A DNA stretch of 64,000 bases from an uncultured Planctomycetia bacterium (GCA_964565425.1 CAZMEZ010000004.1:24907-88906), one strand, 5' to 3'; shown: positions 25,587 to 47,865, counted from the first letter of the stretch. The notes: generated from the letters alone by a model not told the origin. A program made the numbers and translations.

Positions 25587-27050
25587 ATGAAAAATAACAT
25601 GCGGGTTTATATAGTTACCGAAGGGGGCGAGGGTATCGGTTACGGACACGTAACGAGGTGCCTCTCGCTTTGCCAGGCTTTTGAAGGGGAGGGCATCTCT
25701 CCGATATTCATAATAAACGGGGATAAAAGCATTAAGAATATCATCGGCGGAAGGGACTGCGTGACGTTCAACTGGCTTAAAGAGGGGGAAAAGCTGCTGA
25801 AGATCATCGATGGTTCGGATATAACGATAATAGATTCCTATAAAGCGAGCCGCGCCATCTACGCGAAAATATCGGAACTGGCGCTTTTACCGGTCTTTCT
25901 GGACGATTACAAGAGAATAGACTATCCGGAAGGGGTCGTGCTGAACGGAGGCATCCACGCCGAAAGCCTTGCGTACCCCAGGAAAAGGGGGAAGACATAT
26001 CTTCTCGGCGCGAAATACGCTCTTTTGAGAAAAGACTACTGGAAGACCTCCGGCAAGAAGATCAGGAAGAGCGTTGAAAAGATACTCGTTACGTTCGGGG
26101 GGAGCGATACGGATAACTTTACCGCCGAGGTTCTTAAAGCGCTGGACGAGGCGTATCCGGAGATATCAAGAACGGCGGTTATAGGAAAGGCGTCCGGTAC
26201 GTCGCCCGTGGCAGGAAGGGCCGCGGGAGGCGGTACGCGGTTCGTTTTTGACGCGGATGCCGCGGAGATGAAGAAGGTCATGATGGAGGCCGATATCGCT
26301 GTCGCCGCCGCCGGACAAACCACATATGAACTTGCGGCGGTAGGTGTGCCCACGGTCGCGGTCTGCGTTGCCCCGAACCAGAAAATGAACCTTGTGAACT
26401 GGATGGAAAAAGGGTTTCGCGGCTGCGCGCTTGCCGGTCGCAGGATCCCGAAGGAGAAGGTCCTCGAAGGCGTGGAGTATTTTCTGCCTTACAAGAATAG
26501 AAGCGAATTTTATAAGAGCACCAGAGATCTTGTTTCCGCCGACGGGGCGCGCAACGCCGTAAAAGAACTGCTTGGCGCGTACGGTTCCGTTAAATTGAGA
26601 GGGGTCAAAAGGGACGATTGCCGTGATCTCTGGATATGGCGAAACCATCCCAGGGCGAGAAAATGGAGTTTTTGCCATGACGCGATAAGTTATCCCGACC
26701 ACGAAAAGTGGTTCGCCAAAAAGCTCGGGGATAGAAGGGCGCGGATATATATCGCTGAAGACATCCGCGGCCGAAAGATCGGGCAGGCGCGTTTTGAGGT
26801 GTTTCCCTCGAGCGCGATGATCAGCGTGAACCTGAACCCCATGTTCTACGGCAGGGGGTTCGGTTCAAAGGTAATAGAGGGCGCGACCCGGACCTTTCTC
26901 GAAGAAAGGCCGCAGGTAAAAGAGATAACGGCCGAGGTAAACGCGGCGAACATAGCGTCGATCAAGGCCTTTAAAAGAGCCGGATACGAGTTCTCGTCAA
27001 AGGAGCGGAAAGCCGGCGAGAACGCCGATATCTTCAAGTACAGGACCTAA
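25587..27050 (+). CDS. pseG: PseG-PseH fusion: UDP-2,4-diacetamido-2,4,6-trideoxy-beta-L-altropyranose hydrolase fused to a GNAT N-acetyltransferase
   Basis: N-terminal MRVYIVTEGGEGIGYGHVTRCLSLCQAF (PseG type) and a GT-B-like core. From about aa 335 (nt about 26589) a GNAT domain begins (RGRKIGQ...GRGFGSKVIE). Confidence 0.7.
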   Translation: MKNNMRVYIVTEGGEGIGYGHVTRCLSLCQAFEGEGISPIFIINGDKSIKNIIGGRDCVTFNWLKEGEKLLKIIDGSDITIIDSYKASRAIYAKISELALLPVFLDDYKRIDYPEGVVLNGGIHAESLAYPRKRGKTYLLGAKYALLRKDYWKTSGKKIRKSVEKILVTFGGSDTDNFTAEVLKALDEAYPEISRTAVIGKASGTSPVAGRAAGGGTRFVFDADAAEMKKVMMEADIAVAAAGQTTYELAAVGVPTVAVCVAPNQKMNLVNWMEKGFRGCALAGRRIPKEKVLEGVEYFLPYKNRSEFYKSTRDLVSADGARNAVKELLGAYGSVKLRGVKRDDCRDLWIWRNHPRARKWSFCHDAISYPDHEKWFAKKLGDRRARIYIAEDIRGRKIGQARFEVFPSSAMISVNLNPMFYGRGFGSKVIEGATRTFLEERPQVKEITAEVNAANIASIKAFKRAGYEFSSKERKAGENADIFKYRT

Positions 27051-27051
27051 A

Positions 27052-28077
27052 ATGGCGAAGAAGAAAAGATCCAACAGGTGTTTGATGGTAGCGGAGGTGT
27101 CAGCCAACCACGGCCGGAACTTAAGGCAGGCTGTGGCCATGATAAGGAAGGCGAAGGAATGCGGCGCCGACGCGGTAAAGTTCCAGACGTACACTCCGGA
27201 TACGCTTACGATCGATTCGGACAGGAGTTTCTTCAGGGTCAAACACCCCAAATGGAAGGGGCAGACGCTTTACCAGCTTTACGGGAAGGCATATACGCCC
27301 TGGGAATGGTTCGCGAAACTCAAAAAAACGGCGGATTCCGAAGGTATCATGTTCTTCTCGACCGCTTTTGACAGGACGTCGGTCGATCTTCTCGAGAAGC
27401 TCAATGTGCCCGTTCATAAAATAGCTTCGTTCGAGCTTGTCGACCTGCCGCTCATCGAGTACGCGGCAAAGACCGGTAAACCCCTGATCATGTCCACGGG
27501 CATGGCGACGAAGGCGGAGATAAAAGAAGCCGTGGATGTCGCGAGAAAGGCCGGGGCTAAGGATATAACGCTTTTAAAATGCGTGTCGAGTTATCCGGCG
27601 GAACCGCGCGAAATGAATCTCCTGACCCTGCGGGATATGAAGGAGAGTTTCGGCTGCCCGGTCGGCCTTTCGGACCACAGCATGGGGATAGGCGCATCGA
27701 TAGCCGCGGTTGCCCTGGGGGCGACCGTGATAGAGAAGCATTTTACCTTATCAAGGAAGATAAGGACGCCGGACAGCTTCTTCTCGATCGAGCCGGATGA
27801 GCTGGAAAGGCTCATCGTGAACGCGAGAATAGCGGAGAAGGCCGTGGGGAAGGTCCGTTACGGCCTTACCGGGGACGAAAAGAAGAGCAAGGCGTTCAGG
27901 CGGTCGCTTTTCGCGGTCAAGGATATAAAGAAAGGAGAAGTTCTCAACGCCGAGAACGTGAGGTCCGTGAGGCCCGCGAACGGCCTGAGCCCCAAATACG
28001 CGGACGCGGTTTACGGCAAAAAGGCGAAAAAAGGCATCAAAAAAGGCACCCCGCTGGGGTGGGAGCATATATCGTGA
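27052..28077 (+). CDS. pseI: pseudaminic acid synthase (NeuB family)
   Basis: MVAEVSANHGRNLRQAVAMIRKAKECGADAVKFQTY, GLSDHS, and a C-terminal SAF domain. Confidence 0.85.
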   Translation: MAKKKRSNRCLMVAEVSANHGRNLRQAVAMIRKAKECGADAVKFQTYTPDTLTIDSDRSFFRVKHPKWKGQTLYQLYGKAYTPWEWFAKLKKTADSEGIMFFSTAFDRTSVDLLEKLNVPVHKIASFELVDLPLIEYAAKTGKPLIMSTGMATKAEIKEAVDVARKAGAKDITLLKCVSSYPAEPREMNLLTLRDMKESFGCPVGLSDHSMGIGASIAAVALGATVIEKHFTLSRKIRTPDSFFSIEPDELERLIVNARIAEKAVGKVRYGLTGDEKKSKAFRRSLFAVKDIKKGEVLNAENVRSVRPANGLSPKYADAVYGKKAKKGIKKGTPLGWEHIS

Positions 28078-28817
28078 AGGAACTCATCAGAAATTGCCAG
28101 CATTACGGGTCCCATCATACCTTTCTTTTGAGGGGGCGGGACGGTAACGTGGTCGGGGTCGAGAAAAAGACCTTCAGCGAGACCGGGATCCGGGACCTGG
28201 ACCGTGAGGCGGAAGGACTGGAATGGTACTGCCGCCTGATCGGCAGGGACGCGTCCGAGATGATCGGTTCTTTCGAAAAGGCCGCCGGGTACGGACGGCT
28301 GGAAATAAAATACCACGACGGCGCGGTTATAACGACGCCCGCCAGTCCCGATCTTGTCAAAGGAAAGCTGAGGGCGGCGGTCGAGCATTATCTCGAGGTA
28401 TTCGGCAGGGACTCTTTCAGGTTCTCGCACGGTGATTATTTTCTCGGGAACATAGTCTACACGGGCGACAGGGTCGCCTGGGTGATAGATTGGGAACACT
28501 TCAACGACAAGCTTCCCGCGGGATATGACGCGCTGAATTGCGTAACCCAGGTATTTCTTTCCGCGCACGGGAAGAAAAGGCGGTATTCGAGGGAAAGCGT
28601 TGAATCGGCCCGCGCTCTTATCGCGAAAATATCCGAAAGAGCGGCTTTGCCGGAAGAGGCGATCTCCTCCCCGGCGCTCTGGTGCAGGAACACGGCTGCC
28701 GAACGCAGTGATGTCTGGGGAGGCCAGCACGGCAAACTTCCTCATCTTGATTATCCGCGCGAGACCTGCGCGGAGGTGGACAGGATAATAGGGGTCATGA
28801 ACGGAGGCGGGATATGA
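28074..28817 (+). CDS. APH/choline-kinase-fold phosphotransferase
   Basis: Brenner-type motif FSHGDYFLGNIVY followed by VIDWEHF. The GTGA overlaps the pseI stop. The track ORF starts at 28059. Confidence 0.5.
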   Translation: MKELIRNCQHYGSHHTFLLRGRDGNVVGVEKKTFSETGIRDLDREAEGLEWYCRLIGRDASEMIGSFEKAAGYGRLEIKYHDGAVITTPASPDLVKGKLRAAVEHYLEVFGRDSFRFSHGDYFLGNIVYTGDRVAWVIDWEHFNDKLPAGYDALNCVTQVFLSAHGKKRRYSRESVESARALIAKISERAALPEEAISSPALWCRNTAAERSDVWGGQHGKLPHLDYPRETCAEVDRIIGVMNGGGI

Positions 28818-29500
28818 AAAAAGAGATAGTAGCGCTCATACCGGTCAAGGGTTCGTCGGAACGGGTGAAAGCCAAGAACACGAGACCCTTCCACGACACC
28901 AGCCTGTATGAACTGAAGCTCAGGCATATGAAGGAAGTCGGGGGATTCGCGAACGTCATAGTGTCTTCCGAGAGCAAGGATATACTCAGGGCGGCGAAAA
29001 AGACGGGATTTGACACCCACCTCCGTGATCCTAAATATTCCACGAGCACGGTCCCCATGAGCGACGTCTATTCATATATCGCCTCCGAGATAAAGGGGGA
29101 GCATATCGCGTGGGTCAACGTTACTAACCCGCTGGCGGGGCCGGAAGTATATGAAAAAGCCATAGAAAAATATAATTCCATGGGCCCCGGGCATGACTGT
29201 CTTTTGAGCGTTTCGGAGATGAAAGAATACCTTTTCCATGACGGCAGGCCTGTCAATTTCCGTCCCAACCCGTGGCCGAGATCCCAGGACCTCCAGGACG
29301 TGTATGCCATGTCCTTCATAATAAACATCCTCAGGAGAGAGGACATGGTCAGGTGGGGTTCGTGCGTCGGCGAGAAGCCGTATTTCTTCTGCCTGGACAG
29401 GGTTACCTCGAAGGACGTGGATTTTCAGGAGGATTTCGATTTTTGCGAGACGATCTATAAGAAGCGCTGTGAAGCCGTGAAACAGGAGAGTTGCAGGTGA
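28814..29500 (+). CDS. pseF: acylneuraminate/pseudaminate cytidylyltransferase
   Basis: IVALIPVKGSSERVKAKNTRPF N-terminal CMP-NeuAc-synthetase motif. The ATGA overlaps the upstream gene. Confidence 0.75.
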   Translation: MKKEIVALIPVKGSSERVKAKNTRPFHDTSLYELKLRHMKEVGGFANVIVSSESKDILRAAKKTGFDTHLRDPKYSTSTVPMSDVYSYIASEIKGEHIAWVNVTNPLAGPEVYEKAIEKYNSMGPGHDCLLSVSEMKEYLFHDGRPVNFRPNPWPRSQDLQDVYAMSFIINILRREDMVRWGSCVGEKPYFFCLDRVTSKDVDFQEDFDFCETIYKKRCEAVKQESCR

Positions 29501-30996
29501 CGGAAATTTTGAATTTCTCACATGACCGTAACGCGCCCTTCGAGCGGTCCGCTGCCGAGCTGAGGGACACTATAGACGCCTTCGCCGTCCGTCCGGAGTT
29601 GAACGGGTTGTATGACCATTTCGAACGTGATTATTCGTTGCCGCGCGACGTGGTGAGGCAGCAGATAAGGAAATATCTTGAAAAGGCGTATGATTATAAG
29701 ACATGCCGGTTTTCGGAGGATCTCTCCACGCGAAAGATCGCCTATATGGCGCTTAGACACATAGCATATCTACTGTACGTGGTTTTCACGTCGAGAAAAT
29801 ATGGAAAGCCCCCCAAGCGGTACGAACTGATATGCGAATGGGTCCTCGAGGGCGAAGAGATCGACCGGCTTTCCAGGCTCATCGGCCTTTTCGGGCGGGA
29901 GAATGTTTTGATCACTACCCCGTGCCCGGTGAATAAGCCGGGCTATAATATCGAATATCGTCCCTCCCCCTCCGCGACCCAAACCCAAAAGCAAAGTTTT
30001 TATGTCCCCAGGCTTTATGACCGGGAAGAGACGCTCAGGGCCTTTTCCCGGGAGATGCGCGAACTTAAGGTTTACGCGGACCTCTCGCGCAGGACAGGAG
30101 TGAACCTTCTGCCGGTCGCGGGCCATATAGTTAACCAGTACCTGTATTATACCTCTATATTCAAGCATAACCGGGCTAAATACTGTATACAGGAACGCCA
30201 TTACCAGACAAGCGCCATAAAGAACTTCCTGTTCCGTAAATACGGGGGCAAGTGTTCCGCGGCCACGCAGAAGAATATCCACCAGATCTCCAACTGCGGG
30301 TTTTATTATGACGCCGATGCTTTTTTCTCCCTGGGCAACAGGACCGCGGAAAGGGCTCTTGATTACGGCGCCAGGATCGGGCAGGTCGTGCCCGTAGGTT
30401 CGCTCTTCATGGAGCACGCCTGGTTCAATGGCGCGAAAGACAAGGGCCGTCCGGATAAGAGATACGATATCGTCTACCTGGGGATAAATTTCGCGAGGGC
30501 CAAAGACAACCTGGACAGCTATGCCTCTTTCGTCGACGACTATTACGAGACCTTCAGGTGGCTGGCCAGACTTTCCAGGGAAAACCCGGCCCTCAAGATA
30601 GGTATCAAGCATCACGGGAGCAACCATATCGACGAAAAAGAGACGGATATCATAAAGGGCAGCAATATCGAAACAATAGACCAGAAATTGAATTCTTACG
30701 ATATTGGTTTCAGCTCAAGATGCGCCGTGACCTATTGTTCGACGATGGGATATGAGCTTATTGCCCACGGTCTGCCGGTCCTTTTCCTGGACCCGGACAG
30801 GAGGAACGTCACGTGGTTCTCCGAGAAAAGCCTGGTGGACAATTGCCGTGTCACCACTTATAGCCAGTTTGACAGGGCGATAAAGGACCTGCTCGGGGGC
30901 AAGAACGCGCGCATGGAGACCGATGATATCTGCCTTAACAGCGCGGACGTTTCGGGAAGGATATACGAATATTTCAGGAAAGAGGTGAAGATATAA
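29491..30996 (+). CDS. hypothetical protein; C-terminal half resembles GT-B CMP/CDP-dependent transferases
   Basis: No family recognised. IKHHGSNH ... VTYCSTMGYELIAHGLPVLFLD resembles the HP / S-T motifs of TagF, KpsS and sialyltransferase-like enzymes. The start could be GTG 29497. Confidence 0.3.
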   Translation: MQVTEILNFSHDRNAPFERSAAELRDTIDAFAVRPELNGLYDHFERDYSLPRDVVRQQIRKYLEKAYDYKTCRFSEDLSTRKIAYMALRHIAYLLYVVFTSRKYGKPPKRYELICEWVLEGEEIDRLSRLIGLFGRENVLITTPCPVNKPGYNIEYRPSPSATQTQKQSFYVPRLYDREETLRAFSREMRELKVYADLSRRTGVNLLPVAGHIVNQYLYYTSIFKHNRAKYCIQERHYQTSAIKNFLFRKYGGKCSAATQKNIHQISNCGFYYDADAFFSLGNRTAERALDYGARIGQVVPVGSLFMEHAWFNGAKDKGRPDKRYDIVYLGINFARAKDNLDSYASFVDDYYETFRWLARLSRENPALKIGIKHHGSNHIDEKETDIIKGSNIETIDQKLNSYDIGFSSRCAVTYCSTMGYELIAHGLPVLFLDPDRRNVTWFSEKSLVDNCRVTTYSQFDRAIKDLLGGKNARMETDDICLNSADVSGRIYEYFRKEVKI

Positions 30997-31943
30997 TGGC
31001 GATCGAAAAGATAACAAGCGGCAATATCTCCGAACTGAACGAACGCTTCGAGCGCTCGCTGGACTGTTATTTCGCGAACGGCGAATTGAAGCCCGAATTC
31101 ATAGAGCATGTCAAATGCCCGAACTGCGGTAAGGGGGAAGGGAGATCCTTCAGGCAGAAAAGGTTCAATTATGTCCGGTGCGATAGCTGCGGAATGGTCT
31201 ATGCCTCTCCGAGGTTCACGGAAAAGATAAACGAGGAGATCCATTCTCAGGACAAGTACGTCGAACACTTCAAGTGCAAGGTCATACCGTCCATCGATTA
31301 CAGGAGAAACGTTCTCGCCGGGAACAAATACCGGCAGCTCGCGGAGTTCTTTGACGGCCCCGGCAAGGTCCTGGATATAGGGTGCGGCCTGGGCGACGTG
31401 CTGAGCGTTTTCAAGGAACACGGGTGGGATTGCACGGGCATAGATTTCAACGATTTTGCCGTAAAATACGCCGACGAGCATTTCGGGGTAAAGATAATCA
31501 AGGAGAATATCTTCAATATCAGCACGGAAGAGCGGTATGACCTCATCATGCTGTGGGGCGTGCTCGAGCACGTCTACGCGCCGCATGAACTTTTGAAGAA
31601 GGCCAATTCGTTGCTGAAAAAAGGGGGGCTTCTTCTGGTCGAGGTCCCGTCGGCGGATTCCCTGCTGGTCAGGTACTGTGAGCAAACGGGAGCGGAGGCC
31701 CACAGGACGTTCGAGTCGGCGAGGCATATAATGCTTTTTTCGCGTAAGGCGCTCCTGGACATGTGCGGAAAAAACGGGTTTACATGCGAGAAATTGGTAA
31801 GTAACGGCCTGGATATAGCGACGCTCTCCAGGATGGACGGCCTTGGGATCCCCGAGGAGGAGACGGGGAAATTGCAGAAACTGCTCGACGACTCGCTGCA
31901 GGGTGATCTGCTCCGGGGGTTTTTCAGGAAAAAGCGCAAATAA
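30996..31943 (+). CDS. class I SAM-dependent methyltransferase with N-terminal Zn ribbon
   Basis: CPNCG...CDSCG followed by VLDIGCGLGDVL (motif I). Confidence 0.75.
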   Translation: MAIEKITSGNISELNERFERSLDCYFANGELKPEFIEHVKCPNCGKGEGRSFRQKRFNYVRCDSCGMVYASPRFTEKINEEIHSQDKYVEHFKCKVIPSIDYRRNVLAGNKYRQLAEFFDGPGKVLDIGCGLGDVLSVFKEHGWDCTGIDFNDFAVKYADEHFGVKIIKENIFNISTEERYDLIMLWGVLEHVYAPHELLKKANSLLKKGGLLLVEVPSADSLLVRYCEQTGAEAHRTFESARHIMLFSRKALLDMCGKNGFTCEKLVSNGLDIATLSRMDGLGIPEEETGKLQKLLDDSLQGDLLRGFFRKKRK

Positions 31944-31960
31944 AGGGGTATATCCGGGAC

Positions 31961-33394
31961 ATGGCGAAAATATTGCTTATACATCCGCCTTTCGGCACCG
32001 GGGACGATAAACGTCCGCCGGACATCTTTGATCCGCATTTCCCCTGGGGCCTTGGCTATATAAGCGGGACGCTTAAGAAAGAAGGATACGATATCAAGGT
32101 CTTTGACATATACGTCCACCAGTGGGACAAGGCCGAGACCCTCGAAAAACTGAAGCTCGAGGAATACGACCTCGCGCTGATAACGGCCATGGCGACGCAA
32201 TATTTATACGTGAAATGGCTGGCCGGGGAGCTCAAAAAGAACCAAAAAGTGTGTAAGGTGATCCTCGGCGGCCAGCTTGCCACGTTCAGCCATGAAGTCG
32301 TCCTCAGGAATACGGCGGTCGATATCTGCGTCATAGGGGAAGGCGACGTAACGATAGTGGATCTTGTAAAGAACATCGATACTCCTCGCAGTGTTAAAGG
32401 GATAGCGCTCGGGGATGGAGATAAAGTGCTTAAGACCGGCCCCAGGGAGCTCATCAAGGACATCGACAGCATCCCGAACCCCGCGTACGAGCTTTTCAGG
32501 ATGGATATTTACAGGACGAACAAGCTTTATATACACCATAAATCGGCGGTCCTGTACAGCGAGCGGAAAAGGCCGCACGTGATGGCGATGATCACCGGGA
32601 GGGGGTGTCCCTTCGGTTGTAATTTTTGCAGCAGGACCTTCAGGAATATAAGGATAAGGTCCGTCGAATCGATCGTGAGGGAGATAGATTTTTTCATCAA
32701 GGAATACGGCGTAGGCGGCATAAACTTCGTGGACGAACTGCTGTTCCTAAAACAGGACACGATAGACCGCCTGGCGGAAGAACTCGGGAAGAGGGGGATC
32801 CTGTGGAACGGGCAGGCGAGGGTGGATACCATAAATCTTGAACGCCTGGAATTTTACAAGAAGAACGGCCTGGTCTCCATAGGGTTCGGAGTGGAATCGG
32901 GAAGCGACCTCATGCTCGAGAAGATGAATAAGGGCATCACCAGAGAGAAGATAGAAAGGGCGATACGGAAGACGCTGGAAGCGGGCCTGCATCTCAAGAT
33001 GACGCTGATCTTCGGGTATCCGGGAGAAACCCGCGAGACCCTGGAAGAGACGGTCGACATGTTCAGGCGCCTCAGGCATCCCGGCAGGAGGTTCTGTATT
33101 TTAACTCCTTTGCCCGGGTCGAAAGTCTATGAGTCGGCGAAGGAAGAGGGATTGATCTCCGATGAGGACGAATACCTTTCCAGCATATGCGAAGGGTATT
33201 GGAGAAGGGCCGTGAACATGACGGGGTTCGGGGATGACGAATTCGAGAAGGTCCGCTCGGAGACCGAAAGGAAGATGAGGGAGAATTATAAAGAATATCT
33301 TTCATCGCTGCCTCAGGACGAGGCGCGAGAACAATATTTACTGTGTGAAGAGGATTTCGAAAAGGATTTTATCAACAGACCGAAAGTGCAGTAG
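31961..33394 (+). CDS. B12-binding-domain radical SAM protein (paralogue 1)
   Basis: N-terminal Rossmann-like B12 domain (MAKILLIHPPF...) and the CxxxCxxC motif GRGCPFGCNFCS. Confidence 0.85.
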   Translation: MAKILLIHPPFGTGDDKRPPDIFDPHFPWGLGYISGTLKKEGYDIKVFDIYVHQWDKAETLEKLKLEEYDLALITAMATQYLYVKWLAGELKKNQKVCKVILGGQLATFSHEVVLRNTAVDICVIGEGDVTIVDLVKNIDTPRSVKGIALGDGDKVLKTGPRELIKDIDSIPNPAYELFRMDIYRTNKLYIHHKSAVLYSERKRPHVMAMITGRGCPFGCNFCSRTFRNIRIRSVESIVREIDFFIKEYGVGGINFVDELLFLKQDTIDRLAEELGKRGILWNGQARVDTINLERLEFYKKNGLVSIGFGVESGSDLMLEKMNKGITREKIERAIRKTLEAGLHLKMTLIFGYPGETRETLEETVDMFRRLRHPGRRFCILTPLPGSKVYESAKEEGLISDEDEYLSSICEGYWRRAVNMTGFGDDEFEKVRSETERKMRENYKEYLSSLPQDEAREQYLLCEEDFEKDFINRPKVQ

Positions 33395-33412
33395 GGCCGG
33401 ATATCAAGGAGG

Positions 33413-34351
33413 ATGGATATGAATAACGGGAAAAACGCAAAAAAGGGCCTGAATATAATGGTGACGGGCGGGTCGGGCTTCCTCGGAAGCCATATAGCGG
33501 ACGCCTTGACGGGCGCCGGGCACAAGGTGACCATATTCGACATCAAGGAGTCGCCGCATCTCAGGGCCGGGCAGCAAATGGCCCGGGGGGATATTCTTGA
33601 CGCGGAAGAACTTGTCCGCCGGATGAAGGGCATGGACGTCGTGTTCCACCTCGCGGCGCTGGCCGACCTCGACGCGGCCTACGACAAACCCCACGAGACG
33701 ATGAAGATCAACGTCCTGGGGACGGCCAACGTGCTGGAGGCCGCCCGTATCAACAACGTGGGCCGGGTGGTGTTCGCCAGCACCATATACGTGAACAGCC
33801 GCACGGGATCGTTCTACCGGGTGAGCAAGCATTCCTGCGAGCTGCTGTTCGAGGGGTACCACGAGAGGTACGGCCTGGATTACACGATCCTCCGGTTCGG
33901 AACGCTCTACGGCCCTCGCGCCAGCGACAATAACAGCGTTTTCAGGTACCTGAAAGAGGCGCTGGATACCGGGAAAATAAAGTACAAGGGGACGGGCGAA
34001 GAGGTAAGGGAATATATTCACGTCCGCGACGCGGCCAGGATATGCGCGAAGATCCTGGACGGCGATTTCAGGGGCAAGACGCTGATCCTGACCGGCCACC
34101 ACCGCATGAGGTTGGAAGAACTCCTGAACATGGTGAAGGAAATACTCGACAGCAGGGACAGGAAGATAGAGATAACCTGCAACCCGAAGGAATCGGAATC
34201 GCATTACGTCCAGACCCCGTATTCCTACATACCCCGCGTAGGCGAAAAGATAATAACCAATACCTACTGCGATCTCGGGCAGAGCCTTGTCGAGATACTG
34301 GACGAGATCGGGTCGAAAAGGTCCCATAAAGAGATAGAGATAAAGATCTGA
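33413..34351 (+). CDS. NAD-dependent sugar epimerase/dehydratase (SDR)
   Basis: VTGGSGFLGSH and YRVSK. Confidence 0.8.
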   Translation: MDMNNGKNAKKGLNIMVTGGSGFLGSHIADALTGAGHKVTIFDIKESPHLRAGQQMARGDILDAEELVRRMKGMDVVFHLAALADLDAAYDKPHETMKINVLGTANVLEAARINNVGRVVFASTIYVNSRTGSFYRVSKHSCELLFEGYHERYGLDYTILRFGTLYGPRASDNNSVFRYLKEALDTGKIKYKGTGEEVREYIHVRDAARICAKILDGDFRGKTLILTGHHRMRLEELLNMVKEILDSRDRKIEITCNPKESESHYVQTPYSYIPRVGEKIITNTYCDLGQSLVEILDEIGSKRSHKEIEIKI

Positions 34352-34361
34352 AGGCAAAAAG

Positions 34362-36185: not shown

Positions 36186-36199
36186 GGCGGGTAAAGATC

Positions 36200-39649: not shown

Positions 39650-39662
39650 GGGGAAAAAGGAT

Positions 39663-41213: not shown

Positions 41214-41234
41214 TCTTACAAAGGATGATCGAAG

Positions 41235-42392
41235 ATGATAGATTGTTCGGATTTTTTTGAAGCGCTTAAAAACAGGAACCTGGCCTTTTTCACGGGCGTT
41301 CCGGATTCTTTGCTCAAGGATATCTGCGCCTGTATTTCCGATAATACGGGACCGGGAAACAACATCATCGCGGCGAATGAAGGGAACGCCGTCGCTTTGG
41401 CTGCCGGTTATCACCTGGCTACAGGAGAGATAGGCACCGTATACATGCAGAATTCAGGGCAAGGGAACGCGGTCAACCCCTTGACCTCCCTGGCGGACCC
41501 CGACGTTTACGGGATACCCATGCTGATGATCATCGCCTGGAGGGGTGAACCCGGAGGGAAGGACGAACCGCAGCATCTTAAACAGGGAAAGATCACATTG
41601 GAGATGCTCGACACCCTTAATATTCCTTATTCTGTTTTGCCGGAGGACACGATGGGATCCGGGAAGGTCCTGGATAGAGCTGTTGGATATATGGGGGACA
41701 AAAAGGCTCCGTACGCGTTGATCGTCAGGAAGGGCATTTTTGGGCCATATGTTACGCGGGACGTTGATATGCCGACCGGCGGACTTATGAAAGAAGAAGC
41801 GCTTAAACTCGTGGTCGGGAGTGTAGGGGAGCGGGACGTGATCGTCTCCACGACGGGAACGACCTCGAGAGAACTCTTCGAGCACAGGAAAGAGATCAAA
41901 GAAGGCCAGGGGAGGGATTTCTTGACAGTCGGTTCCATGGGGCATGCTTCCTCCATTGCTTTGGGGATAGCGCTCAGGAAGAAGGAACGGGATATTTATT
42001 GTCTGGACGGCGACGGGGCGGCCATCATGCACATGGGAGCGCTCGCCGTTATAGGCGACCAGTGCCCCCAGAACTTCAGACACATCATTTTTAATAACGG
42101 GGCCCATGATTCCGTGGGAGGGCAACCGACTGCCGGGTTCAGGATCGATTTTCCGGCTATCGCCATGGCTTGCGGGTACAAGGCGGCATTCAAGGCGGAA
42201 AACGCGGAGGAGATAGTGGAAAAGATGTCTTTATTGCGGGAGATTGACGGCCCGGCCCTGTTGGAAATAAGGGTAAGGAAAGGCTCGAGAAAGGACCTGG
42301 GACGTCCTTCGGTATCGCCGGTAGAAGGGAAAAAAGCTTTTATGGATTTTTTGTTCGAAAAGGATAAAGATCGCCAATCTCCGGAGGGATAG
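41235..42392 (+). CDS. ppd: phosphonopyruvate decarboxylase
   Basis: MIDCSDFFEALKNRNLAFFTGVPDSLLK start typical of Ppd/AepY, and the ThDP motif GDGAAIMHMG...NNGAHDS. Confidence 0.8.
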   Translation: MIDCSDFFEALKNRNLAFFTGVPDSLLKDICACISDNTGPGNNIIAANEGNAVALAAGYHLATGEIGTVYMQNSGQGNAVNPLTSLADPDVYGIPMLMIIAWRGEPGGKDEPQHLKQGKITLEMLDTLNIPYSVLPEDTMGSGKVLDRAVGYMGDKKAPYALIVRKGIFGPYVTRDVDMPTGGLMKEEALKLVVGSVGERDVIVSTTGTTSRELFEHRKEIKEGQGRDFLTVGSMGHASSIALGIALRKKERDIYCLDGDGAAIMHMGALAVIGDQCPQNFRHIIFNNGAHDSVGGQPTAGFRIDFPAIAMACGYKAAFKAENAEEIVEKMSLLREIDGPALLEIRVRKGSRKDLGRPSVSPVEGKKAFMDFLFEKDKDRQSPEG

Positions 42393-43513
42393 TGTTGAAT
42401 TATCGCATGCCGACGAACATAAATTTTGGTAAAGATTGCCTGGCCGGTCTGGCCGATGTTATCGCGCCTGGCCCGGCGGGGAAAGTCCTTGTTTTCACGG
42501 GAACAGGATCGGCTAAAATTTCAGGCGCTCTTGACCGTATAACCGGGATATTGTCCGGGTGCAACCCGGTCTTTTTTGAAGGTATAGAGCCCGATCCCGC
42601 CTTAGAGAGCCTGGAAAGAGGCATAGAAGTGTGCAGGCGGGAGGTCCCGGACCTCATCATAGCGGTCGGCGGAGGCAGCGTTATCGATTACGCGAAAGCG
42701 GTTTCCGTCCTGGCGGGGGAAGAAGGGGAAGTGTCGGATTTCTTCAGGGGCGGACGGAAACTAAAAGGCGGCAGGGCCGCGTTTATCGCGGTCCCGACCA
42801 CTTTCGGCACTTCGAGCGAGATAACCCCTTACGCGGTGATGACCGATACGGTAAACGGTATCAAGATCACCCTGGAAGACGCGAGCATATTCCCGGACCG
42901 GGCGTTCATTGACCCGAAATTTACCTTGACGATGCCGGAAGAGCTCGTGGCCGCCTCCTGCGCGGATCTCCTGTCCCACGCTGTCGAGGCGTACTGGAAC
43001 GTGAACGCCACGGAACTCACGGATATTTTCGCGTTGCAGGCCATAAGAACTTTCATGGGATCCTACAAGCGGACGTTCGAATCCCCCGCCGATACGGCAG
43101 CCAGGGGAAGGATAGTCCTGGCGGGCATATGCGCCGGATTGGCTTTTTCGAACACCAGGACAACGGCGTGCCACTCCATCTCATATCCGATGACCGCTGT
43201 CTTCGGCGTGCCTCACGGCATGGCATGCGTTTTAACGCTGGGCGAGATGCTGGAGTTCAATTCGACGGCTAGCGGGGAAAAGCTCCTGGCGTTGTGCGGC
43301 GCCATGGATTGCGGTGATGTGCGGGAAGCGAAACAGAAAATAGGATCTATCCTGAAAGATCTGCGCATTAAAACAAGATTAAGGGATTACGGCCTGAAAA
43401 AGGGCGATCTTGCCCTTATCCTGGACAAGGGGTTCACCCCGGAGAGGATGGCGAACAATCCCGGTAAGGTCACCAGGGACGACCTGGAAAAAATGCTGGA
43501 GAGGATATATTGA
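42392..43513 (+). CDS. iron-containing (group III) alcohol dehydrogenase; phosphonoacetaldehyde reductase by context
   Basis: GGGSVIDYAKA and the metal His cluster HSISYPMTAVFGVPHG. The start is uncertain (GTG 42392, TTG 42395 or ATG 42407). Confidence 0.7.
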   Translation: MLNYRMPTNINFGKDCLAGLADVIAPGPAGKVLVFTGTGSAKISGALDRITGILSGCNPVFFEGIEPDPALESLERGIEVCRREVPDLIIAVGGGSVIDYAKAVSVLAGEEGEVSDFFRGGRKLKGGRAAFIAVPTTFGTSSEITPYAVMTDTVNGIKITLEDASIFPDRAFIDPKFTLTMPEELVAASCADLLSHAVEAYWNVNATELTDIFALQAIRTFMGSYKRTFESPADTAARGRIVLAGICAGLAFSNTRTTACHSISYPMTAVFGVPHGMACVLTLGEMLEFNSTASGEKLLALCGAMDCGDVREAKQKIGSILKDLRIKTRLRDYGLKKGDLALILDKGFTPERMANNPGKVTRDDLEKMLERIY

Positions 43514-45000
43514 TGAAGAGACCCGAACAATTCAAGGTGCTGCTGGTCCTGGCTAACGGCTACATGGACTCACTGATACCGCCGAACATCTCGCTCTTGT
43601 CGGCCTACCTGAAGAGAGAAGCTTTCCAGGTAAGGCTTTTCGACACCGTTTTTTATAAAACAAAGGAAAAAACAGGCGACGATGTCCGGTATGAAACGCT
43701 GCAGGTCAAATCGGCTAACGTGGCCGAGTATGGCGTTACGCGCAAAGACGGTGACCTGATCGGGGATTTCAGAAAAGCCGTACTGGAATACGAACCTGAC
43801 CTCGTAGCGCTGTCGACGATAGAGGCTACGCATCCCCTGGGCATGTCGCTCCTGCGGAGCATAAGCGATATCGAGGTTGAAAAAATAGTAGGGGGGATAT
43901 ATACCACTATCAGCCCGGATGAAGTGATAAATGAAGATTGCGTCGATATCATCTGTATCGCTGAAGGGGACAACGCGCTGATCGAGCTGTGTCACAGGAT
44001 GAGGAAGGGAGAGGATTATTCCGATATCCGGAACCTGTGGGTAAAAAAGAACGGTTCGGTGTCCCGGAATGAACTGGCCACCCCCGTAGATATAAATAAA
44101 ATGCCCTTCCAGGACTGGTCGATATTCGACAAAAAACGTCTGTACAAGTCCATGGGGGGAAGGGTCAATATCACGGGATGCATCGAGCTGAACAGGGGAT
44201 GTCCTTATAACTGTACTTACTGCTGCAACGCGAAATTGCATGAACTGTACGAGAACAGGTTCTACCGGGAGCGGGATGTGAAGAACTTCGTGGCGGAAGT
44301 TGTGGAAAAAAAGGAAAAATACGACCTGGGTTATGTCTATGTAGCCGCCGAATCTTTCTTGACGACAAGAGAAGAAAGGTTCGAAGAATTCATCAAGCTG
44401 TACGGGGACGTGAAGATCCCGTTCTGGGTGCAGTCAAGGCCCGAGGCGATCCGGGAAGAAAGGATAGTCAAACTGGGATCCGTCGGCTGCGAGGGTTTGA
44501 GCGTAGGGGTCGAGAGCGGTAACGAGGAATACAGGAGGGACGTGTTGAACAGGAGGATGAGCAACGATGATATCGTCAGGGCGTTCAAGGTCCTGAGCAG
44601 GCATCCGGAGATCAGGAATTGCGCGAACAGCGTGATCGGGTTCCCCGACGAGACCAGGGGGCATATCTTTGAGACCATAGAATTGATCAAGAGGGTGCAG
44701 CCGAGGAACGTGATGGTCCACATATTCAACCCCTACAGGGGCACCAAACTGCACGATATATGCGTGGAAAAAAATTACCTGTCGAAGGACAGTCTGTGCG
44801 GGGACTACAGGATGGACGTGGCCATTGAGAATCCCAACCTGACCAAAGAAGAGATCAGGGGATTGCAGAGGACGTTCGCGTTATACGTGAGGTTCCCGGA
44901 GAACCGTTATAAGGAAATAGAACGCGCCGAGAAATTCGACAAAGAGGGTAATGAGTTGTTCGGGAAATTAAGCGTGGAATTCAAAAGCAAGTATTTATGA
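43513..45000 (+). CDS. B12-binding-domain radical SAM protein (paralogue 3)
   Basis: B12-domain N-terminus and NRGCPYNCTYCCN. ATG 43513 overlaps the ADH stop by 1 nt (the track gives TTG 43510). Confidence 0.85.
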   Translation: MKRPEQFKVLLVLANGYMDSLIPPNISLLSAYLKREAFQVRLFDTVFYKTKEKTGDDVRYETLQVKSANVAEYGVTRKDGDLIGDFRKAVLEYEPDLVALSTIEATHPLGMSLLRSISDIEVEKIVGGIYTTISPDEVINEDCVDIICIAEGDNALIELCHRMRKGEDYSDIRNLWVKKNGSVSRNELATPVDINKMPFQDWSIFDKKRLYKSMGGRVNITGCIELNRGCPYNCTYCCNAKLHELYENRFYRERDVKNFVAEVVEKKEKYDLGYVYVAAESFLTTREERFEEFIKLYGDVKIPFWVQSRPEAIREERIVKLGSVGCEGLSVGVESGNEEYRRDVLNRRMSNDDIVRAFKVLSRHPEIRNCANSVIGFPDETRGHIFETIELIKRVQPRNVMVHIFNPYRGTKLHDICVEKNYLSKDSLCGDYRMDVAIENPNLTKEEIRGLQRTFALYVRFPENRYKEIERAEKFDKEGNELFGKLSVEFKSKYL

Positions 45001-45019
45001 TACCGCGAAGGATCTATCG

Positions 45020-45739
45020 ATGAAAGCAGTTATAGTAGCGGCAGGAAGATCGAGCAGGTTGTATCCATTGACCCTGGACACGCCGAAACCTCTCCTGGAG
45101 GTCAACGGCAGGTCCATCATCGAGCGTTCCATTTCCAATCTTCGCCGGAACGGCATAGACGAGATCGGGGTAGTGGTCGGCTATCTGCGGGAACGGTTCC
45201 TTGAAGCGCTGAAGGACGGGGTGACGTTCATCGATAACCCGCGTTACGCGACCACGAACAACATGGCTTCCCTCTGGTATGCCAGGGATTTCGTGGGGGG
45301 TGACGAGTTCGTGTATCTGCACGGGGACGTAGTGTACCACCCGGACATACTTGAAGATTGCCTGAGGTGCGACGGTGATATCACCCTGATGGTCGACAAA
45401 AAGAAGTGCGACGAAGAGGACATGAAGGTAAGGGTTGCGGGTGACCGCTTCCTGGGATCCAGCAAGGACATACCGGTGAATGAGTCCTACGGGGAGTGGA
45501 TAGGGATCGCTAAATTTTCCGCCAAGGGCGGGAGCCTGGTATTCAGCGAAATAGACAAGGTGCTGGACGACGGGAAGAACAACGCTTATGACACCTATGC
45601 TTTTACGGGACTGGCCATGCGGGATCACCCGATAGATATCTGCCATACGCGGGGCTTGTCCTGGGTCGAAATAGATTTTCCGGAAGAACTGGAAAGAGCA
45701 AAGAAGATATGCCTGGCCATGGAGAAAGAGGGGGAATGA
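45020..45739 (+). CDS. LicC-like sugar/alcohol-phosphate nucleotidyltransferase
   Basis: MKAVIVAAGRSSRLYPLTLDTPKPLLEVNGRSIIE NTase signature. Confidence 0.8.
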   Translation: MKAVIVAAGRSSRLYPLTLDTPKPLLEVNGRSIIERSISNLRRNGIDEIGVVVGYLRERFLEALKDGVTFIDNPRYATTNNMASLWYARDFVGGDEFVYLHGDVVYHPDILEDCLRCDGDITLMVDKKKCDEEDMKVRVAGDRFLGSSKDIPVNESYGEWIGIAKFSAKGGSLVFSEIDKVLDDGKNNAYDTYAFTGLAMRDHPIDICHTRGLSWVEIDFPEELERAKKICLAMEKEGE

Positions 45740-46653
45740 TGAGGTCCTTGAAGGATATCAGGAAAATGCAGTACGAGTATCATTACGAACATGAGATGTG
45801 CCAGTTCTTCAGGGATTGGAAGAAGGCCCCGTACTCGTATTTCAGGGGTATCATGTGGATGGAGATGAGCTCGTTCGTCGTTTATATCCTGCAGAGAACG
45901 AAGGTCACGCCCAATGCCCTCTCGGTCGCTTATTGCCTGTCCGGATTGGCCGGCGGGGTCCTGCTGGCTATCCCGATGAAGGCGACCATCCTTGCCGCTG
46001 TCTTTGTGTTCTTTTTTAAGGCGATATTCGACTGGTGCGACGGCTTGCTCGCGCGCGTAACGCGCAAATTCTCTCTTGTAGGGGATATACTGGATTGCTA
46101 CGGTGCCATTTTGGGAGCCATGGGGCTTGAGATAGGACTGGGATTCTATGTAGCCCACAGATCCGGCATGGCCCTGTATTACTATCTTATACCTCTTATT
46201 CCCTTATTTTTCTTTGGTAAGCTGCACTCGTTCGTGTTTCACATATTTTACAAGAACTATATTACGACCCCGAGATTGAAGGAACTTTTCGGCAAACAGG
46301 CGCGGGATCACGCGGCACAGGCCGCCGGCAGCGGTCCGGAAAAGGTCCTTAGCGGGGGGTTCGAAAAAATAAGGAATTTCATCAACAATTTTCTGGATCA
46401 TCGTTCCAGGACCATAGATCTTATATGCCTGTTGCTTTTGGTGGAGCAGTTCACGCCCGTTTTCGTCACATGGATAGTGTTCCTGGGGTTTGTGATCAAG
46501 GAATTTCTGTTGTTCTCGGCTTCGTTCTATGTCGTAGCGAGGCGCGGGTGGGCGGAAAAAGAGATGGAAAAGAAACTTGCAGAGATATCGGGATCTTTCC
46601 CGCGGGGGGCGGAAAAGAGCGGCGCCGAAGTTCCGGTATCGCCGGAGGAGTGA
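45736..46653 (+). CDS. CDP-alcohol phosphatidyltransferase-family membrane protein (variant motif)
   Basis: Multi-TM protein. The motif FDWCDGLLAR-x8-G-x3-D-x3-A (nt 46030-46107) matches D-x2-DG-x2-AR-x8-G-x3-D-x3-D except that the last Asp is Ala. The ATGA overlaps the upstream gene (the track gives 45709). Confidence 0.6.
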   Translation: MMRSLKDIRKMQYEYHYEHEMCQFFRDWKKAPYSYFRGIMWMEMSSFVVYILQRTKVTPNALSVAYCLSGLAGGVLLAIPMKATILAAVFVFFFKAIFDWCDGLLARVTRKFSLVGDILDCYGAILGAMGLEIGLGFYVAHRSGMALYYYLIPLIPLFFFGKLHSFVFHIFYKNYITTPRLKELFGKQARDHAAQAAGSGPEKVLSGGFEKIRNFINNFLDHRSRTIDLICLLLLVEQFTPVFVTWIVFLGFVIKEFLLFSASFYVVARRGWAEKEMEKKLAEISGSFPRGAEKSGAEVPVSPEE

Positions 46654-46660
46654 TCAATCC

Positions 46661-47701
46661 ATGAACATAGAAAATCTGATAGACAGCCCGTTGAAAAAGG
46701 AAGGGGATATATGGTACGGCCCCGAGGGCGGGTACTGGTCCAACCTGGAGAGGTCCAAGAGTGAGATCTATCTGAAGGACCTGGAGGCCCTGGGTTCGAT
46801 GGAGACCATGAAAAAATATTTTCCGCAGCACGGGGACGTCATTTCCCTGAAAAGGATGGGCGGGGCCGCGACACTTGACCTTGCCCCGGGCGAAAAGGTG
46901 CTTGACGCGGGTTGCATGTGGGGAGCGCTCGCGGTGCCGCTTGCCAGGACACGGGCGGAGGTCATTGCGGTCGACCAGACCAGGGAAAGCATGCTGTTCC
47001 TGGCCAAAAGAAAGGAAGAAGAGGCCCTGGAGAACCTGCACCTGGTGTGCGGCGACCTGAAGGAAATAAAATTCAGGGAGAAGATTTTCGATAAAGTGAT
47101 CGTGAACGGCGTGCTGGAATGGGTCCCCGAAACGCAAACGGTCGAGGTGGGGAATTTTATCAGGCGGAAAAATCCTTTCCTCGAGAACCTGAAACTCCTC
47201 TTCTCGAAGCGGGAGAGAAAGGATTCCCCGAGGGAAAAACAGCGTCGTTTCCTGGGTAAGATACAAAGGGCGCTCAAGGATGACGGCACCCTTTACCTGG
47301 CGATAGAGAACAGGTACGATGTTTTTTATTTCTTCGGTATTCCCGAACCGCATTGCGGGATCAGGTTCATTTCGCTCTTGCCGCGGTGGGCGCAGGACAT
47401 CCTGTCGCTGCTCCTCAGGGGGAGGAGGTTCAGGTTGTGGACTTATTCGAAAAAGGAACTGGAGGACCTGTTGCGCGCGTCCGGGTTCTCGAAAATAAAG
47501 TTCCATTACGCTTTTCCGGATTATAAGGAACCGGAGCAGGTCTTGACGGATGAAGGGATGGAACTCTTCAGGTATTGCAAATCCGCGGGAGATAAGCCGT
47601 TCTATAAAAAGGCCGTCCTGCGGTTTATCGAGGAAGTCGTGTTCAAAAGGATGAAACTGACGTTCTTCGCGCCGAGCTTTATCGTGCACGCGGAGAAGTG
47701 A
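46661..47701 (+). CDS. class I SAM-dependent methyltransferase
   Basis: VLDAGCMWGALAVPLA motif I. The internal ATG 46661 avoids overlap with the upstream gene (the track gives 46577). Confidence 0.7.
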   Translation: MNIENLIDSPLKKEGDIWYGPEGGYWSNLERSKSEIYLKDLEALGSMETMKKYFPQHGDVISLKRMGGAATLDLAPGEKVLDAGCMWGALAVPLARTRAEVIAVDQTRESMLFLAKRKEEEALENLHLVCGDLKEIKFREKIFDKVIVNGVLEWVPETQTVEVGNFIRRKNPFLENLKLLFSKRERKDSPREKQRRFLGKIQRALKDDGTLYLAIENRYDVFYFFGIPEPHCGIRFISLLPRWAQDILSLLLRGRRFRLWTYSKKELEDLLRASGFSKIKFHYAFPDYKEPEQVLTDEGMELFRYCKSAGDKPFYKKAVLRFIEEVVFKRMKLTFFAPSFIVHAEK

Positions 47702-47865
47702 TAAGCAATAAGTGATAGGTGATAGGTAATACGTGGGCGAAAGGCTAGAGGCGAAATTGATTACGAAGATTTTGAAGTAGACGATAATCTTAGATTACGA
47801 AGATGTAATCTCCGCGATCTCATTTAAATCTCGTAATCAACGAAAAACGAATAACGCAATACGAA
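47698..47865 (+). repeat. mosaic spacer B: GTGATAR words, core element and NAACGAA words
   Basis: gtgataa gcaataa gtgatag gtgatag gtaatac, then the core at 47743-47841 (53 nt at 47743-47795 identical to 61580-61632), then caacgaa aaacgaa taacgca atacgaa. Confidence 0.9.

Follow-up and report, generated by a model that had tools for sequence, protein, structure and literature searches.

Parts of the locus described here have counterparts in several known systems. In the early fosfomycin pathway of Streptomyces (Fom1, the phosphonopyruvate decarboxylase (Ppd) Fom2, the iron-dependent alcohol dehydrogenase (Fe-ADH) FomC, and Fom3), phosphoenolpyruvate (PEP) is converted to the cytidine monophosphate (CMP) conjugate of 2-hydroxyethylphosphonate (2-HEP, or HEP), followed by a cobalamin radical S-adenosylmethionine (SAM) step; the Fom1 cytidylyltransferase makes CMP-HEP (PMC6697681), and Fom3 methylates this conjugate (PMC8158854). 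A PF12804 domain is joined to 33% of PEP mutase (Ppm) proteins, in pathways that have been given a surface-tailoring role; LicD-like phosphotransferases are a kind of enzyme found in Pnt gene neighbourhoods, and the transferases acting after CMP activation in the phosphonyl tailoring pathway are largely unassigned (PMC6697681). Of the neighbourhoods of ppm genes, ~8.5% are of the HEP type (PMC8942020). The related 2-aminoethylphosphonate (AEP) occurs on the Bacteroides fragilis capsule and the C. difficile flagellin glycan (PMC8861647), and phosphonate-decorated glycans or glycoproteins are documented or postulated (PMC8861647, PMC8931226). We analysed a 64,000-nucleotide window (the whole stretch of DNA under study, from an uncultured Planctomycetia bacterium, GCA_964565425.1 CAZMEZ010000004.1:24907-88906), in which a run of 18 genes at 25587-47701 places pseudaminic-acid-type nonulosonate genes beside a phosphonate cassette led by PEP mutase (PepM); this run probably builds a phosphonate-decorated surface glycan.

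The modules themselves are known and their combination is new; we do not regard the locus as a new kind of system. Our literature searches, which paired phosphonates with Omnitrophota or with nonulosonic, pseudaminic or legionaminic acids, returned no described system joining both, nor any described case linking phosphonate genes to nonulosonate synthesis or B12 radical SAM tailoring. Exopolysaccharides bearing 2-HEP are made in Glycomyces, and Yu et al. are said to have described one from Stigmatella in 2014. As in such bacterial phosphonoglycans, where pepM lies in polysaccharide loci, the phosphonate predicted here would come from PepM and Ppd and sit on a surface glycan.

Gene run at 25587-47701

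Listing and translation of the open reading frames (ORFs) gave 18 consecutive genes on the + strand, confirming an earlier note on this DNA, made from the sequence alone, which had described 18 + strand genes with gaps of at most 21 nt. Its relatives were Candidatus Omnitrophota genomes; the loci used for comparison are numbered with the prefix L, and include L012 (Bdellovibrionaceae) and L015 (Pelagibacteraceae). The genes of the run are as follows.

g1, 25587-27050, + strand: PseG-PseH-like fusion (TIGR03590 143.8 bits, cut-off 153.55; GNAT domain at residues 336-482; PseH model 48.4 bits, cut-off 93.1)
g2, 27052-28077, + strand: PseI pseudaminic acid synthase with NeuB and SAF domains (TIGR03586 466 bits, cut-off 340.25)
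g3, 28074-28817, + strand: small APH/choline-kinase-fold kinase (PF01636 23.3 bits; HGDxxxxN and IDWE motifs intact in the translation)
g4 (CTP2), 28814-29500, + strand: NeuA-type CMP-ulosonate cytidylyltransferase (PF02348; NeuA structures at E=1e-7)
g5, 29497-30996, + strand: uncharacterised soluble GT-B-fold protein, paired with g4
g6, 30996-31943, + strand: class I SAM methyltransferase (PF13489 1.6e-28)
g7, 31961-33394, + strand: B12-binding radical SAM enzyme (PF02310 and PF04055; 65-66% identity in L008 and L009)
g8, 33413-34351, + strand: sugar epimerase/dehydratase family of the short-chain dehydrogenases/reductases (SDR) (PF01370 5.4e-45)
g9, 34362-36185, + strand: fused transmembrane domain-nucleotide-binding domain exporter of the ATP-binding cassette (ABC) type, HepA/MsbA/PglK-like (PF00664 and PF00005)
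g10, 36200-37942, + strand: uncharacterised soluble GT-B-fold protein, its stop abutting the PepM start
g11, 37943-39649, + strand: PepM with a C-terminal LicC/PntC-type nucleotidyltransferase (PF13714 2.9e-53, and PF12804)
g12, 39663-41213, + strand: B12 radical SAM enzyme, matching phosphonate/phosphinate P-methyltransferase models best (Sden_1168, 236 bits against a cut-off of 575; PhpK, 119.5 bits)
g13, 41235-42392, + strand: Ppd (TIGR03297 476.4 bits, cut-off 312.5)
g14, 42392-43513, + strand: Fe-ADH (PF00465 and PF25137; Phn_Fe-ADH model 252.5 bits, cut-off 423.7), its start overlapping the Ppd stop by 1 nt
g15, 43513-45000, + strand: second B12 radical SAM enzyme of the cassette (PF02310 and PF04055)
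g16, 45020-45739, + strand: free-standing LicC/PntC-type cytidylyltransferase (1jyk LicC 2.6e-17; PDB 6pd1, presumably the PntC-AEPT fusion from T. denticola described by Rice et al. in 2019, 8.5e-13)
g17, 45736-46653, + strand: membrane CDP-alcohol phosphotransferase family (PF01066 8e-10; hydrophobic segments)
g18, 46661-47701, + strand: class I SAM methyltransferase

The distances between successive genes from g1 to g18 were 1, -4, -4, -4 (or -10), -1, 17, 18, 10, 14, 0, 13, 21, -1, -1, 19, -4 and 7 nt, the widest gap being the 21 nt from 41213 to 41235, and all eight overlapping or abutting junctions named earlier are real. For the overlap given as 29491/29500, the overlap itself stands but its TTG start at 29491 is less likely than GTG 29497; the latter, with a GTGA overlap at the stop at 29500, is most likely the start of g5, because a ribosome-binding site (AGGAGAG) lies 6 nt upstream and an identical database protein (P0132) has 499 aa. 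The start codon of g3 at 28074 is GTG, not ATG, and g18 starts at ATG 46661, giving 346 aa as in relatives.

Phosphonate cassette

By family assignment, g11-g18 hold a complete PepM-Ppd-Fe-ADH route to 2-HEP, so that the run does contain a whole phosphonate module, as had been claimed. On TIGR02320, g11 scored 303.4 bits, just under the cut-off of 319.55; it carries EDKRFPKVNS, fitting the PEP mutase motif EDKxxxxxNS (PMC6697681), and its C-terminal domain matches LicC 1jyk at 5e-8. The step needed to draw the unfavourable PEP mutase equilibrium forward is supplied by the Ppd g13, and the Fe-ADH g14 is predicted from its family to be the phosphonoacetaldehyde reductase that gives 2-HEP. No aminotransferase, and thus no class V, PhnW-like AEP transaminase, was present among the 18 genes (the nearest aminotransferases being of class III at 23274 and of the DegT type at 18728 and 52588), and Pfam and NCBIfam scans of the proteins encoded at 15113-57444 gave no match to the HppE (Fom4) or FomD families; these results place the cassette on the HEP branch. 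The second B12 radical SAM enzyme, g15, is more widely conserved than g12, with 89% identity in L001 and also 72% in L005, a locus that lacks g12, and the g16-g17 pair recurs in L001 and L025.

The cassette thus shares the enzyme set and the logic of the early fosfomycin pathway, and predicts a route of that kind in which a CMP-activated 2-hydroxyethyl/propyl-phosphonate would be handed to an acceptor. It differs in its cytidylyltransferase, a C-terminal domain of the LicC/MobA type (PF12804) where Fom1 has an N-terminal one of the PF01467 type. It also has a second B12 radical SAM enzyme, an additional LicC/PntC-type enzyme and a CDP-alcohol phosphotransferase, and gave no FomD or Fom4/HppE match. 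Since no epoxidase or CMP-hydrolase was found, the CMP-phosphonate would be kept as a donor, and since the cassette is embedded in a glycan island, the conjugate is probably a donor and not a transient intermediate as in fosfomycin synthesis.

The same likeness raises the alternative that the product is a small phosphonate molecule which the cell would secrete as a fosfomycin-like antibiotic or signal, with the ABC protein as its efflux pump. In favour of this, the cassette has the PepM-cytidylyltransferase, Ppd, Fe-ADH and B12 radical SAM enzymes with which fosfomycin synthesis begins (PMC6697681, PMC8158854), and the exporter gene lies two genes upstream of PepM. However, the missing HppE and FomD matches among the 18 genes and their neighbours, surroundings made up of sugar-nucleotide enzymes, glycosyltransferases and an initiating phosphoglycosyltransferase, the link of Ppm-PF12804 fusions to surface tailoring (PMC6697681), and the conservation of the ABC gene with the g4-g10 block rather than with PepM make such a product very unlikely.

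The cassette also resembles the Pnt pathway in its Ppm-PF12804 fusion, its free LicC/PntC-type enzyme and its cell-surface glycan neighbourhood (PMC6697681). Here, an Fe-ADH stands in place of the AEP transaminase, so that the predicted cargo is derived from HEP and not from AEP as in Pnt. In addition, no LicD-like phosphotransferase was matched among the window proteins scanned; its position is held by the GT-B protein g10, with the PF01066 enzyme g17 further along. The g16-g17 pair, overlapping by 4 nt, also resembles IPCT/DIPPS and LicC/LicD phosphocholine decoration in pairing a cytidylyltransferase with a PF01066 membrane enzyme, for CMP activation and then transfer to an alcohol, but g16 and g17 score far below the IPCT/DIPPS family cut-offs (78 bits vs 580) and the substrate would be a phosphonate. 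The locus and its relatives offer two conserved candidates for the missing phosphonyl-transfer step, namely the GT-B protein abutting PepM and the pair of LicC-type cytidylyltransferase and CDP-alcohol phosphotransferase.

Nonulosonate genes

Genes for the early steps and for amidation of the nonulosonate lie just upstream of the run, on the same strand.

17743-18723, + strand: PseB (TIGR03589 496.6 bits, cut-off 407.75)
18728-19873, + strand: PseC (TIGR03588 499.8 bits, cut-off 423.5)
19870-20613, + strand: CTP1, a cytidylyltransferase in the PseF position (weak KdsB-type NCBIfam matches; PDB 6oew 'Cytidylyltransferase' E=1.6e-38)
20630-21253, + strand: WbuY/HisH-like protein of the acetamidino (sugar amidation) set (ORF translation)
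21247-22035, + strand: WbuZ (TIGR03572 248.7 bits)
22050-23249, + strand: WbuX (TIGR03573 317.7 bits)

PseB, PseC and PseI all scored above their curated cut-offs, PseB and PseC lying outside the 18 genes; g2 also reached 316.5 bits on the NeuB_NnaB model, below its cut-off of 399.65. The domain assignments match the PseG-PseH fusion, PseI and kinase fold proposed earlier, with both domains of the fusion below curated cut-offs. Homologues of the kinase g3 were found in L006 (58%) and L007 (45%). For g4, a NeuA-type cytidylyltransferase is what we found, but its role as the CMP-nonulosonate synthetase, as it had been named, is ambiguous, because it scored 61.1 bits on the PseF model TIGR03584 (cut-off 205.7) and a second cytidylyltransferase lies upstream. 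That enzyme, CTP1, had no PseF match in the NCBIfam scan, is presumably SpsF-like, and is kept after PseC in L007 and L010. Judged by position and family, either CTP1 or g4 may do the PseF job.

The set corresponds to the PseB-C-H-G-I-F pathway of Campylobacter and Helicobacter with acetamidino tailoring, sharing PseB, PseC, PseI, PseG-like and GNAT domains and the WbuX/Y/Z set. It differs from that pathway in that PseG and PseH are fused and below cut-offs, in its two cytidylyltransferases, neither at the PseF cut-off, and in the small kinase between PseI and g4. We also considered a flagellin glycosylation island and dropped it; no flagellar gene turned up among the window genes scanned, nor did a flagellin or Maf-type transferase.

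GT-B-fold proteins and exporter

Both orphan proteins of the run, g5 and g10, are soluble GT-B-fold proteins from uncharacterised families. Neither has hydrophobic segments, and neither gave a significant match in lax-threshold Pfam, NCBIfam and PDB searches by single sequence and profile; the GT-B fold was recognised in both. The matches of g10 include users of CMP or CDP donors (WaaA, TagF, TarL, Cps3D, SiaD). The g10 family comprises ~300 representative clusters. The sequence signature of sialyl/polysialyltransferases and TagF-like transferases is an HP motif with a D/E-D/E-G motif, or the Glyphos_transf profile; g10 has DIKIHP with a near-invariant Pro, and invariant H349 and K440, but PF07388 appears only faintly (E=0.055, 2 of 29 family members), and g10 has no Glyphos_transf match. 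The window copy of g10 lacks ~22 residues (KINIYxSKxEKE...) that are present in all six aligned homologues (alignment columns ~378-400), and has FWHVG in place of their FQHGG/FQHAG; these differences could mark a decaying copy as well as a functional variant.

The exporter g9 has the fused half-transporter architecture expected of the MsbA/PglK-like protein described earlier, with hydrophobic segments within its first 316 residues, and its family-model scores are all below cut-off: 378 bits for HepA (cut-off 725), 347 for MsbA (602) and 266 for PglK (1000).

Linkage of nonulosonate and PepM genes in relatives

We then compared the gene order with that of relatives; co-occurrence was sampled rather than counted, with 7 loci each from genome and metagenome scans. 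In about four of the eight lineages, nonulosonate genes neighbour PepM, and in one of these the pathway is of the legionaminic type. In the closest lineage (L001, L006 and L017; PepM 83% identical), the whole order from NeuB to the family 2 glycosyltransferase (GT2) is kept: NeuB through to the kinase, CTP2, g5, radical SAM, SDR, ABC, g10, PepM-nucleotidyltransferase, radical SAM, Ppd, Fe-ADH, radical SAM, nucleotidyltransferase, CDP-alcohol phosphotransferase, methyltransferase, RmlD and GT2. In L024, a legionaminic-type set (DegT, NeuB, hydrolysing epimerase, CBS-nucleotidyltransferase and CTP_transf_3) lies directly upstream of an orphan gene and PepM, which on gene content is an independent link of a nonulosonate pathway to PepM. 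The PepM cluster of L005 contains a CTP_transf_3 gene, and in the Pelagibacteraceae single-cell genome AG-360-D04 (L015:1508-4289) a PF01467 cytidylyltransferase-PepM fusion is followed 28 nt on by a g5-family GT-B gene.

In L007, PseB, PseC, CTP1, WbuY, WbuZ, WbuX, PseG-H, PseI, kinase, CTP2, g5 and methyltransferase form an unbroken series, and a block of CTP2, g5, (methyltransferase), radical SAM, SDR, ABC, (PIG-L) and g10 is conserved in Omnitrophota L008, L009, L010 and L016. This CTP2-to-g10 block is kept even where NeuB, at 36% identity, belongs to another type; the identity of g4 remains 66-74% across Omnitrophota. Co-occurrence of pepM and pseI in relatives had been put forward as a check. 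Nonulosonate and phosphonate genes are physically linked in L001/L006/L017, L024, L005 and L015, but the cassette is modular, being found in L023, L025, L026 and L027 without nonulosonate genes in the available DNA.

Within the nearest PepM clade, the genes directly upstream of PepM are as follows.

Window and L001 (PepM identity 100% and 83%): g10 family, abutting
L005 (PepM identity 66%): 423-aa orphan, overlapping
L024 (PepM identity 64%): 401-aa orphan, overlapping
L025 (PepM identity 65%): 608-aa LIC12162-type protein, overlapping
L023 (PepM identity 72%): weak LicD-like gene, 55 nt upstream

A LicD-like gene occupies this position only in L023. The L005 and L024 orphans are 60% identical to each other, and the other proteins upstream of PepM are not detectably related. 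The idea that all of these genes form one family was dropped, because profile comparison of the g10 family with the g5 family, with the 401-aa protein of L024 and with the LIC12162-type protein of L025 gave probabilities <1%.

Two side observations concern these families. In Bdellovibrionaceae UBA6776 (L012:2613-12147), a g5-family gene comes after an FGGY kinase, Fe-ADH, nucleotidyltransferase and class II aldolase and before CTP_transf_3, a set that we take to resemble a CDP-alcohol-type set; this suggests that the g5 family works with CMP/CDP-linked donors more generally. The L025:3101-4927 protein, and weakly also the g10 homologue L008:20217-21455, match PF27859 'LIC12162', a name that is presumably a Leptospira interrogans locus tag, and related genes may lie in Leptospira surface-glycan loci.

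Proposed pathway and alternative products

We propose the following pathway from the gene identities and gene order. PseB, PseC, PseG-H and PseI would build a pseudaminic-acid-type nonulosonate, which WbuXYZ probably amidates and CTP1 or g4 would CMP-activate, and the leading candidate for transferring this CMP-activated acid is g5, a regular partner of g4. The methyltransferase g6, the B12 radical SAM enzyme g7 and the SDR g8 would tailor the sugar or glycan, and g9 may flip or export a lipid-linked intermediate begun by the Bac_transf enzyme at 59783. In parallel, PepM would convert PEP to phosphonopyruvate, Ppd would convert this to phosphonoacetaldehyde, and the Fe-ADH would reduce it to 2-hydroxyethylphosphonate; the LicC/PntC-type domain fused to PepM, g16, or both would make the CMP conjugate, which g12 and/or g15 may C-methylate as Fom3 does. 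Finally, g10 and/or the membrane protein g17 would pass the phosphonate from the CMP-phosphonate donor onto a hydroxyl group. We expect this to yield a surface glycoconjugate that contains the nonulosonate and is decorated with the phosphonate.

That a single glycoconjugate carries both the nonulosonate and the phosphonate is plausible, at about even odds in our judgement, and a number of findings weigh against it. The cassette shares 81-89% identity with that of L001, against 37% for PseI and 40% for PseG-H, which fits a portable cassette in a variable sugar locus. PepM-nucleotidyltransferase cassettes at 53-72% identity occur in the glycan loci L023, L025, L026 and L027 noted above, and g10-family genes stand beside NeuB with no PepM in view in L018 and L022. 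As g10, the 608-aa protein of L025, the 401-aa protein of L024 and g5 are not detectably related, the argument from a common "slot" before PepM is one of position only. Both cassette radical SAM enzymes, g12 and g15, fall far below every curated cut-off, so that methylation of CMP-HEP is an analogy and not an assignment, and the g17 family normally acts on lipids or small alcohols, which makes a phosphonolipid possible. Packing at ≤21 nt also extends outside the run (8 of 11 junctions in 15113-25243 and 6 of 8 in 47919-57444); it is therefore a property of the whole island, not of the 18 genes.

Two or more products would accommodate these points, with the nonulosonate on one glycan, the phosphonate passed via g16/g17 to a phosphonolipid or a different polymer, and the adjacency reflecting the genome's habit of same-strand envelope-gene arrays. 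In addition to the portability of the cassette and its different level of conservation, this explanation draws on the equally tight packing of 15113-57444, which mixes sugar pathways (RmlD, GT2, GT4, a Gfo/Idh-acetyltransferase pair), and on the g16-g17 pair, whose closest named relatives are IPCT/DIPPS and phosphatidylinositol-phosphate synthases; PF01066 enzymes typically make lipid head groups. However, the nonulosonate-PepM adjacency recurs with a different pathway in L024 and in a different phylum, via the g5 family, in L015; several lineages have g10 joining the ABC-exporter block to PepM, with stop and start codons that abut or overlap; and g17 does not always accompany the cassette, no PF01066 gene being in view in L005 and L023. 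We consider separate products possible but rather unlikely.

If one glycoconjugate does carry both, it would represent a new class of surface glycan that combines a C-P compound with a sialic-acid-like sugar, in Omnitrophota, a phylum whose bacteria are ultra-small and host-dependent (PMC10066038). The locus and its relatives also point to a defined likely partner sugar. A narrower version, in which a CMP-hydroxyalkylphosphonate is esterified directly on the pseudaminic-acid-type sugar or a neighbouring glycan by the g10 or g5 GT-B family, is speculative and in our judgement improbable; if true, it would provide the first example of a nonulosonate glycan bearing a phosphonate and of a phosphonyl transferase with the GT-B fold, and the g5-PepM pairing in Pelagibacteraceae would hint at the same chemistry in marine SAR11 phosphonate producers. 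The g5-family protein of L015 is, by its place next to PepM, a candidate phosphonate or ulosonate transferase in these organisms, and the family may connect to the phosphonoglycoproteins postulated for marine bacterioplankton (PMC8931226).

Surrounding glycan island

The 18 genes are the central stretch of a ~42-kb one-strand cell-surface glycan island (15113-57444), in an uncultured bacterium that we take, from its relatives, to be Omnitrophota-like. Apart from the genes already listed, its features and those just beyond it are the following.

15475-17714, + strand: trio of 2-hydroxyacid dehydrogenase, cyclase and haloacid dehalogenase-type (HAD) hydrolase (NCBIfam and Pfam), in the island but outside the 18-gene run
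23274-24431, + strand: class III aminotransferase, not at this position in L007
24485-25243, + strand: metallo-beta-lactamase-fold hydrolase, not at this position in L007
47919-57444, + strand: downstream rest of the island, with RmlD, GT2, two B12 radical SAM enzymes, a DegT-type aminotransferase, an SDR, GT4, a Gfo/Idh oxidoreductase and a hexapeptide acetyltransferase
59783-61342, + strand: initiating polyprenyl-phosphate sugar phosphotransferase with Bac_transf and CoA_binding_3 domains (PF02397 7.7e-69; hydrophobic segments)

Beyond 57444 lie a multi-pass membrane protein, the Bac_transf initiating phosphoglycosyltransferase and another GT2. RmlD (70%) and GT2 (66%) come after the cassette in L001 too. 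The dehydrogenase/cyclase/HAD trio has a different place in L008 and L009, where it falls between the SDR and ABC genes, inside the equivalent block. With PseB, PseC and the acetamidino genes immediately upstream on the same strand, this trio outside the run, and bounding spacers that are lineage-specific, the 18 genes do not form the self-contained unit that the earlier note had described.

The island encodes five B12-binding radical SAM enzymes (31961-33394, 39663-41213, 43513-45000, 49756-51228 and 51245-52591), none of which reaches a curated family cut-off. This is an unusual density for sugar tailoring, and points to unexplored radical tailoring of glycans.

Spacers and transcription signals

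Two spacers bound the run.

25244-25586, no strand: upstream spacer with heptamer arrays and a GATTACGAAGAT hairpin element (Tandem Repeats Finder (TRF), sequence and motif count)
47702-47918, no strand: downstream spacer with heptamer arrays and a second copy of the GATTACGAAGAT hairpin

Both are indeed repeat-built, as had been stated. TRF located heptamer arrays at 25250-25272, 25311-25329, 25331-25390 and 25554-25585 and a 21-mer array at 25504-25547 in the upstream spacer, and arrays at 47708-47735 and 47839-47866 in the downstream one. Each spacer holds one hairpin element of ~90 nt with GATTACGAAGAT inverted arms (upstream -27.4 kcal/mol, z=-3.98; downstream -23.3 kcal/mol), and the GATTACGAAGAT motif was counted 23 times vs 6.75 expected. 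The same repeat mosaic fills the spacers at 59420-59780 and 61345-62090, and is thus a property of the genome, not of the boundaries of the run. In relatives, only 63 nt separate the methyltransferase from RmlD (L001, without the hairpin element), and only 5 nt separate WbuX from PseG-H (L007); the two bounding spacers, missing at the same junctions in these loci, are, by this comparison, lineage-specific repeat insertions.

The earlier note had implicitly treated the run as a separately regulated operon, for which the repeat spacers would act as promoter and terminator regions. They are the only gaps >112 nt within 15113-57444, their hairpins are stable, and a promoter-like TTTAAA-17-TATAGT lies at 25468-25496. 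Nevertheless, scans for sigma-70 promoters and intrinsic terminators over 24-50 kb gave counts equal to those in shuffled sequence (the consensus does not cover Omnitrophota promoter types), no U-tract follows the hairpins in the sequence of either spacer, the repeat mosaic is a general spacer feature of this genome, and relatives (L001, L007) are without both spacers. We find a separate operon doubtful, and "obligatory co-expression" an overstatement that is not demonstrable from sequence. Rfam and tRNA scans of the whole window returned no match; accordingly, the spacers contain neither an RNA gene nor a cobalamin riboswitch.

A search for the sigma-54 consensus was at chance overall; its sole perfect -24/-12 site, TGGCACGGTTGTTGCA at 10252-10267, lies outside the spacers, ahead of a 166-aa ORF (10322-10822). 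A sigma-54-dependent response regulator (8434-9807) and RpoN (10972-12336) are encoded in the same region, upstream of the island.

The adjoining 1.8 kb at 6610-8434 holds no credible + strand gene; heptamer arrays lie at 7136-7242, and the sole long ORF (7000-8268, - strand, 422 aa, no Pfam match) looks spurious. Long intergenic spacers of this genome are mosaics of the heptamer arrays CGCATAG, ATACGTG, AGGCNAG, ACGAACG, CCTTTAT and GATTCAC, and also carry the GATTACGAAGAT hairpin element. A small ORF at 61696-61950 (+ strand; MNKYCVYIVKCRDNTFYAGCTNNLEKRIKAHNEG...) is embedded between repeat arrays; its sequence contains what we take to be a GIY-YIG nuclease motif, and it may be linked to the spread of the repeat mosaic.

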